Below are positions 1-1,018 of a DNA stretch of 2,424 bases, piece after piece. This DNA comes from Naegleria gruberi (lineage: Eukaryota): the NCBI GenBank assembly GCA_000004985.1, contig GG739263.1, one strand, 5' to 3'. The position numbers were made by a program, and so were the translations under genes. Position 1 is the stretch's first letter. The number at the start of each line of letters is the position of its first letter. The notes under the pieces were generated by a model. That model was not told where the DNA came from. It searched no databases and saw nothing but the letters and a program-made list of their open reading frames with translations.

Positions 1-221
1 TCACACCTTCTTTGACGTTTCTACTGAACATATGATTTAAAATGTTCACATGCGAAACTTTTTGGAATGGTTATTTGTGGTTGAGTGGTTTGACCTTGTC
101 CAGTCTCTGACCAATAAAATTCGAGATCAAATTCATAACTGTCATTAGAAGACATTCGCTGATAATTTTAGATATTGGTTGTTGGGATTTGTGTTGGTTT
201 GAGGAAGAATTCTTCACCGTA

Positions 222-283: not shown

Positions 284-285
284 TA
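284..285. repeat. TA, putative target-site duplication (left copy)
   Basis: The dinucleotide ta lies immediately outside the CAGT terminus (..gattatTA|CAGTCTG..). Confidence 0.45.
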
Positions 286-323
286 CAGTCTGTTTCATCC
301 AATGCTGAACGCAAAAAAATGAA
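286..323 (+). repeat. Left terminal inverted repeat of the element
   Basis: Read directly from the sequence; see the alignment described for the mobile element. Confidence 0.7.
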
Positions 324-978
324 GTTTTTCAAACTTTTAGTCAGGAATGGCAGTTTTCTGATCGATTGGCCTTTGTTAGGAAGGGAAAACCACTTGAATA
401 CCTTCAGATTCTAATAAAAAAGTTGTGTTTCTAATTGAAAAACAAGAACATCAGTCCAAAAATCAAAAAACTTGTTTTCTCTCTTCACATGTCTCGTCAC
501 ACGCCAATGCTAGCCGTTAAATTTCAAACTCAAAAAAAATAAAGCAATGGTTAGTAGCAAAACCGTTCACTCAAAACTAACTTTTCGACTTGTAGATTTT
601 TTCATAATTTTCTGTCAGTGACATGTACTATAGAGAACCATCACCACCCAAGCAAAGGAAGTACTCTGCTACACTCTACATATCATGTATCTTTTAAAAG
701 CACATCTGTTTCATAGACCTTTTGTCTGTCAGCCACATGATAAACAGCCCAACATCATCAGTTCGGCTCCCTAACACAACAATATTCCAAATAAGCATCA
801 ATTCAAATTGAATAAAATAAATAAATTCTTTATTAAAACAGTCTGCTTCATTGATCAATCAGTGCAGTATAAACACAGGCATTCCACTCATTACAACTGC
901 TAAATCCTTAAAGGCTCTCTAAACCAAAATGAGAGACAGTTGAAAAACTTTGCTGTTACCAAAAAAAACTTGCAAAAT

Positions 979-1016
979 TTCGTTTTTTTGCGTTCAACAT
1001 TGGATGAAACAGACTG
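979..1016 (-). repeat. Right terminal inverted repeat of the element
   Basis: Reverse complement of 979..1016 aligns to 286..323 with two mismatches (C/T at TIR position 20, T/C at position 35). Confidence 0.7.
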
Positions 1017-1018
1017 TA
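1017..1018. repeat. TA, putative target-site duplication (right copy)
   Basis: ..CAGACTG|TAtcgaat..; ta lies immediately outside the right terminus. Confidence 0.45.

Follow-up and report, generated by a model that had tools for sequence, protein, structure and literature searches.

Results

A TA-flanked inverted-repeat element in Naegleria gruberi

The window analysed here, a stretch of 2,424 bp of Naegleria gruberi DNA (contig GG739263.1; G+C = 32.5%), holds a non-coding element of 731 bp (286-1016) that is bounded by long terminal inverted repeats, and, further to the right, the 3' part of a transposase-like gene that runs off the edge of the window. A repeat finder returned one inverted repeat that stands out in the window, with arms at 284-338 and 964-1018 (55 nt each when the TA at the outer end is counted, 89% complementary) and a spacer of 625 nt between them. 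When 286-338 was compared directly with the reverse complement of 964-1016, 47 of the 53 positions were identical, including 36 of the outer 38; the similarity fades past these outer 38 nt and stops at about nucleotide 53. The left terminal inverted repeat (286-338, plus strand) and the right one (964-1016, minus strand) both begin, just inside the TA, with CAGTCTGTTTCATCCAATG: each end reads CAGTCTG, the termini of the element as a whole are CAGT...ACTG, that is, ends of the CAGT type, and the longer end sequence that bounds the element is CAGTCTGTTTCATCC. Scored without gaps (+1 for a match, -2 for a mismatch), the top inverted repeat of the window reached 37, compared with a mean of 14.0 (standard deviation 2.1) and a maximum of 24 in 200 dinucleotide-preserving shuffles of the same window, and the terminal inverted repeats are far above chance.

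The dinucleotide TA abuts the element on both sides (284-285 and 1017-1018), as a putative target-site duplication; when flanking duplications of 3 to 11 bp were sought, the two flanks failed to match at every length tested. Joined without the 731 bp, they would read ...CTATTATTGATTAT-TA-TCGAATAAAAAGTG... (i.e., ...GATTAT-TA-TCGAAT...). An earlier note, made from the letters of this stretch, had described 286-323 and 979-1016 as inverted repeats with two mismatches, both starting alike and both with TA outside, and a direct reading of the arms bears out each of these points.

A non-coding interior with internal copies of the terminal motif

Between the arms, the interior of the element (339-963) is non-coding. 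The longest stop-free stretch within the element is 54 amino acids, its six frames matched no Pfam family at E <= 10 and contained no transposase remnant, and the element had no Rfam match at E <= 1, all of which agrees with the statement of the earlier note that nothing there codes on either strand. Compared with the rest of the window, the interior shows no similarity save for short AT-rich words. By exact look-up, ten open reading frames (ORFs) of the window proved absent from the protein collection, and looking up contigs for the 150-residue ORF likewise gave no match. A word-index protein search with a six-frame pseudo-protein of the element also returned nothing, a result that carries little weight because the same search, with the ORF of the neighbouring gene as query, missed a protein 99% identical to it; with P0012 as query, it recovered only P0001 (XP_002679140). 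An A-rich stretch at 520-541 (TCAAACTCAAAAAAAATAAAG) bears a loose likeness to the inner portion of the terminal repeat (GAACGCAAAAAAATGAAG); it is of low complexity, and the likeness may be due to chance.

Two additional copies of the terminal 14-mer ACAGTCTGYTTCAT, which the earlier note had not seen, lie inside the element. The core TCTGYTTCAT occurs four times in the window (at 289-298, 705-714 and 842-851 on the plus strand and at 1004-1013 on the minus strand, with 0.01 copies expected), and all four occurrences fall within the element; the terminal motif is absent from the rest of the window. The first internal copy (701-714, plus strand) reads ACA-TCTGTTTCAT, with TCTGTTTCAT exact at 705-714, and equals the terminal 14-mer minus one base. 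The second (838-851, plus strand; ACAGTCTGCTTCAT) matches the tip at 13 of 14 positions, with 0.01 expected in shuffles, and its similarity to the tip ends after these 14 nt. Both are oriented like the left end though they are located in the right half of the element, such that the copy at 838-851 forms an inverted pair with the right end, at a distance of 152 nt. That the tip motif recurs twice inside the element suggests a recognised sequence. The internal copies could be extra transposase-binding sites, or the scars of nested or abortive copies.

A transposase-like gene next to the element

The neighbouring gene, which lies outside the element, occupies 1636-2424 on the minus strand up to the right edge of the window, where it is represented by an ORF at 1639-2103 with its stop codon at 1636-1638. 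The earlier note had put the 3' end of the gene ~620 bp from the element, which is correct. Neither Pfam nor the word-index protein search yielded a match to this ORF. A HMMER scan of 1.84 billion representatives, by contrast with the word-index search, recovered a 645-residue protein (P0001) that matches it at 99% over all 155 residues. This protein is N. gruberi XP_002679140, annotated as 'predicted protein', and three further N. gruberi paralogues belong to the same 90% cluster; the paralogous loci are XP_002679140, XP_002674278, XP_002673243 (called intact) and XP_002668347. Counting the window copy, the family has at least five copies at >= 98% identity and is recently amplified, and its more distant relatives come from N. 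gruberi, N. lovaniensis and two metagenome contigs.

Aligned to P0001, the window copy is identical at 107 of 107 and 154 of 155 residues on the two sides of a gap in which it lacks eight residues (DCLKWGNA), corresponding to about 25 nt at 2101/2102 and resulting in a frameshift. Judged by the family alignment, the deletion takes out the invariant residues D579 and G584, and the frame is lost before E595, which is also invariant. The window copy is a pseudogene. Two alternatives, an intron that restores the reading frame and an additional 3' exon at 1519-1597, were rejected because, compared with the paralogue, the window copy has cleanly lost eight residues (~25 nt) and its ORF ends in KVKF*, the same stop at which the N. 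gruberi paralogue is annotated to end.

The family alignment has the layout YxDEF...W-WD...CSxC...NFHWxxH...FELKH, that is, D, D, C(2)C, H(3)H, E. Sequence searches of Pfam and the PDB with the transposase family gave no recognition, and fold comparison alone succeeded: with an AlphaFold model of a 741-residue paralogue (pLDDT 62.8, pTM 0.62) as query, the top seven Foldseek matches were all RAG1 or Transib, at E-values from 3.8e-8 to 6.9e-4. The neighbouring gene is therefore a dead copy of a recently amplified transposase-like gene, whose predicted fold matches those of RAG1, RAG1L and Transib and which fits the CMCT clade (EnSpm/Mirage/Chapaev/Transib/ESTA). Within the searchable literature, we found no RAG1-like transposase described from Naegleria. 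One of the metagenome relatives, an 863-residue protein encoded at 2581-5172 of contig L012 (JGI 3300038658, 23% G+C), is a distant member with zinc-finger-like CxxC motifs at its N-terminus, which indicates that the family extends beyond Naegleria; on this 5.5-kb contig, neither clear terminal repeats nor a resemblance to the element could be seen.

The identity of the adjacent gene also bears on a further suggestion of the earlier note, namely that the element may contribute to the 3' flank or regulation of the only gene in the window. Because that gene is, by the evidence above, a frameshifted copy of a multi-copy transposase-like gene, the suggested effect on a host gene has no object, and the element shows no sign of host function.

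Other features surround the element on both sides. To its left, a 44-residue ORF that begins with ATG (MSSNDSYEFDLEFYW...; 21-155, minus strand) starts 129 bp from the left TA; exact look-up and word search of the protein collection returned nothing for it. Should a real gene begin with this ORF as its first exon, the element would occupy the upstream region of that gene. In the non-coding DNA that separates the element from the transposase stop codon lie a (TAT)5.7 microsatellite and a tandem repeat of 10-11 nt (1256-1272 and 1337-1362), followed by a G+C-rich patch at 1500-1600 (47% vs 32%) with a short tandem repeat of GTAGCCG at 1542-1557.

Discussion

A probable non-autonomous transposon and its superfamily

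Long inverted repeats terminating precisely at CA/TG, a TA duplication and a non-coding interior make up the anatomy of a non-autonomous cut-and-paste DNA transposon, and we consider it very probable that 286-1016 is such a transposon. In structure it resembles a miniature inverted-repeat transposable element (MITE), with a length at the upper end of the range usual for MITEs, no ORF beyond the 54 residues noted above, inverted repeats and TA flanks. A transposase encoded elsewhere would bind the terminal inverted repeats (~38-53 bp) and cut at the CAGT...ACTG ends; the element would then integrate at a TA dinucleotide, and gap repair would yield a TA on each side. This copy would have inserted in non-coding DNA 620 bp downstream of the dead RAG1-like transposon gene, and it is therefore probably nested in or next to a larger RAG1-like transposon.

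The superfamily is unproven. Tc1, Tc3, pogo and Bari-type ends begin with CAGT and duplicate TA. Because TA together with CAGT is the classic Tc1/pogo signature, and because the third base of the ends is G, unlike the C of Transib and ESTA, the best guess is Tc1/mariner/pogo, and we put at about even the chance that the element is one MITE-like copy of the superfamily IS630-Tc1-mariner (Tc1 or pogo type) in N. gruberi. This assignment is only a guess because the CMCT clade allows CA..TG ends and TA duplications, a CMCT-like transposase lies 620 bp away, and the orientation of the left arm fits the end of such a transposon. The Tc1/mariner-type MITE proposed by the earlier note thus stands as far as its inverted repeats, TA flanks, non-coding interior and 731-bp length are concerned; its premise that TA together with CAGT-type termini is the Tc1/mariner/IS630 signature is not established, since TA with a CA..TG end is not unique to that superfamily. 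Nor does the CAGT-type end discriminate by itself, given that hAT ends likewise carry G at position 3 (PMC1131882).

The length of the duplication narrows the choice: because only the 2-bp TA fits, hAT (8 bp; the flanks are GATTATTA and TATCGAAT), Transib (5 bp; TATTA and TATCG), Chapaev (4 bp), EnSpm and canonical Harbinger (3 bp), and Mutator (9-11 bp) are ruled out. An internal eliminated sequence of a ciliate, which would also be bounded by TA (with TAYAGYNR ends), was rejected as well: translation with genetic code table 6 opens no long frames, and the flanking gene is 99% identical to an N. gruberi protein in the standard code.

Among the known elements closest to it are Tc1/pogo-type MITEs, for example Tc7 of Caenorhabditis elegans, a 921-bp non-coding derivative of Tc1, with these shared features: TA flanks, CAGT ends, repeats of tens of base pairs, a non-coding interior of a few hundred base pairs and presumed mobilisation in trans. 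The element differs from Tc1/pogo-type MITEs in that its repeat matches nothing in the searchable literature (neither the tip sequence nor its reverse complement appears in any paper there), in having no known autonomous partner or second copy, in its two internal, left-oriented copies of the tip, and in its host, a heterolobosean amoeba for which we found no report of Tc1/mariner. The element is a plausible, unnamed copy of a non-autonomous DNA transposon, an ordinary kind of element.

Alternative explanations

Several observations weigh against a Tc1-type MITE, and some of them would suit other explanations. A flank match of 2 bp is weak alone and is expected by chance about 1 time in 10 (~10%) in AT-rich DNA such as this; the two internal tip copies, both in the orientation of the left end, are atypical of a simple Tc1-type MITE; and the transposase 620 bp away comes from a clade able to give TA duplications and CA..TG ends. 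The searchable literature reports no Tc1/mariner/pogo transposon or MITE in N. gruberi, and one survey finds that standard pipelines recognise 0.28% of its genome as transposons (bioRxiv 10.64898/2026.06.24.734286); most N. gruberi repeats are unclassified, with a small fraction classifiable (PMC12344493). The collections searched (prokaryote, viral and metagenome) yielded neither a second copy nor an empty site nor an autonomous relative: the 19-nt tip had 11 loci there, all of them single matches that stop at the 19-mer and are ascribed to chance. Because the N. gruberi genome lies outside these collections, the absence of a copy is uninformative.

The feature might not be mobile at all, and might instead represent a local inverted duplication present once in the genome, or a fixed structure (a long hairpin stem, for instance), with TA on either side by chance. 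The weak flank match, the missing second copy and the reportedly transposon-poor genome would all accord with this explanation, which we nevertheless regard as quite improbable: the arms stop exactly at CA/TG with TA outside, as the ends of transposons do, the tip motif recurs twice more within the element, no RNA family matches it, and the missing copy says little for the reason just given. Still less probable is a non-autonomous member of another superfamily that duplicates TA, e.g., a relative of PIF/Harbinger-ISL2EU of the 'PHISTA' kind. Elements of the PHIS group with TA duplications do exist (PMC12730594), and a Repbase entry, PIF_Harbinger-1_Ngru, places the superfamily in N. gruberi (tree file in the supplement of PMC12730594); however, the canonical 3-bp Harbinger duplication does not fit here, and nothing in the window ties the ends of the element to a PHIS transposase.

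The adjoining gene raises a different alternative, which we rate as unlikely, though less so than the two preceding ones and still a live rival: the element could be the non-autonomous partner of the RAG1/Transib-fold family next to it, a family of the CMCT clade that would make 2-bp TA duplications and recognise CAGTCTG... ends. Mirage, the neighbour of ESTA in the tree, makes 2-bp duplications. More generally, members of the clade commonly have CA..TG ends and duplications of 2-5 bp, and the ESTA lineage duplicates TA (PMC12730594); the CAGT...ACTG ends and TA flanks of the element fall within this range. The residues of the adjoining family follow the D, D, C(2)C, H(3)H, E pattern, and the left arm is oriented as the 3' end of a transposon with its gene on the minus strand should be. 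The family is, moreover, recent and multi-copy, and a source of transposase may therefore exist. What the element lacks is the terminal CAC (CACTA, CACAATG, CACC...), with G as the third base on both arms: the consensus ends of ESTA start with CACC (supplement of PMC12730594), and in the Transib heptamer CACAATG, position 3 is invariant across every Transib family examined (PMC1131882). Further, the element has no sequence similarity to that 3' part of the large transposon which lies in the window, the terminal motif is confined to the element, and the sight of two transposons side by side is common and proves nothing. In a stronger version of this alternative, the arm at 286 would be the true 3' terminus of the large transposon copy, which would span 286 to some point past 2424, with the right arm as an internal inverted copy; this version requires the TA after the right arm to be coincidental.

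The likenesses to individual members of the clade are similarly divided. With ESTA, the element shares the TA duplication, the CA..TG ends and the company of a RAG1-similar transposase, here as a RAG1-fold transposase gene 620 bp off; ESTA, in contrast, has CACC ends and was described from rust fungi, whereas the element starts with CAGT, and a link of its ends to the neighbouring gene would be hypothetical. With Transib and the RAG recombination signal sequences (PMC1131882), it shares a repeat of ~38 bp that may be parsed into a 7-nt CA....G block, a spacer of ~20 nt and an A-rich 9-mer (AAAAAAATG, compared with AAAAAAATC in Transib), in addition to a neighbouring gene of the RAG1/Transib fold. 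However, its duplication is 2 bp and not 5, its third base is G and not the invariant C, and its spacer is 20 nt and not 12 or 23; and we rejected this reading of the repeat as not distinctive, given that the loose pattern of heptamer, 20-nt spacer and AAAAAAATG occurs four more times in the window. Were the element nonetheless the partner of this uncharacterised RAG1-fold family, which strikes us as rather doubtful, the family would represent a new lineage of the CMCT clade, located in Discoba, that duplicates TA and has CAG instead of CAC ends, and ACAGTCTGYTTCAT would be its putative transposase-binding site.

Implications

Taken as a non-autonomous transposon, the element is of modest interest in itself: if it is confirmed to be multi-copy, it would add a named DNA-transposon family to N. 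gruberi. The neighbouring transposase family is the more interesting thread, and a recently amplified family of RAG1/Transib-fold transposases that is invisible to Pfam and resides in a heterolobosean amoeba may matter more than the element next to it. The ends of that family and the length of its duplications would place the element in it or outside it, and would place the family itself among the relatives of RAG1.
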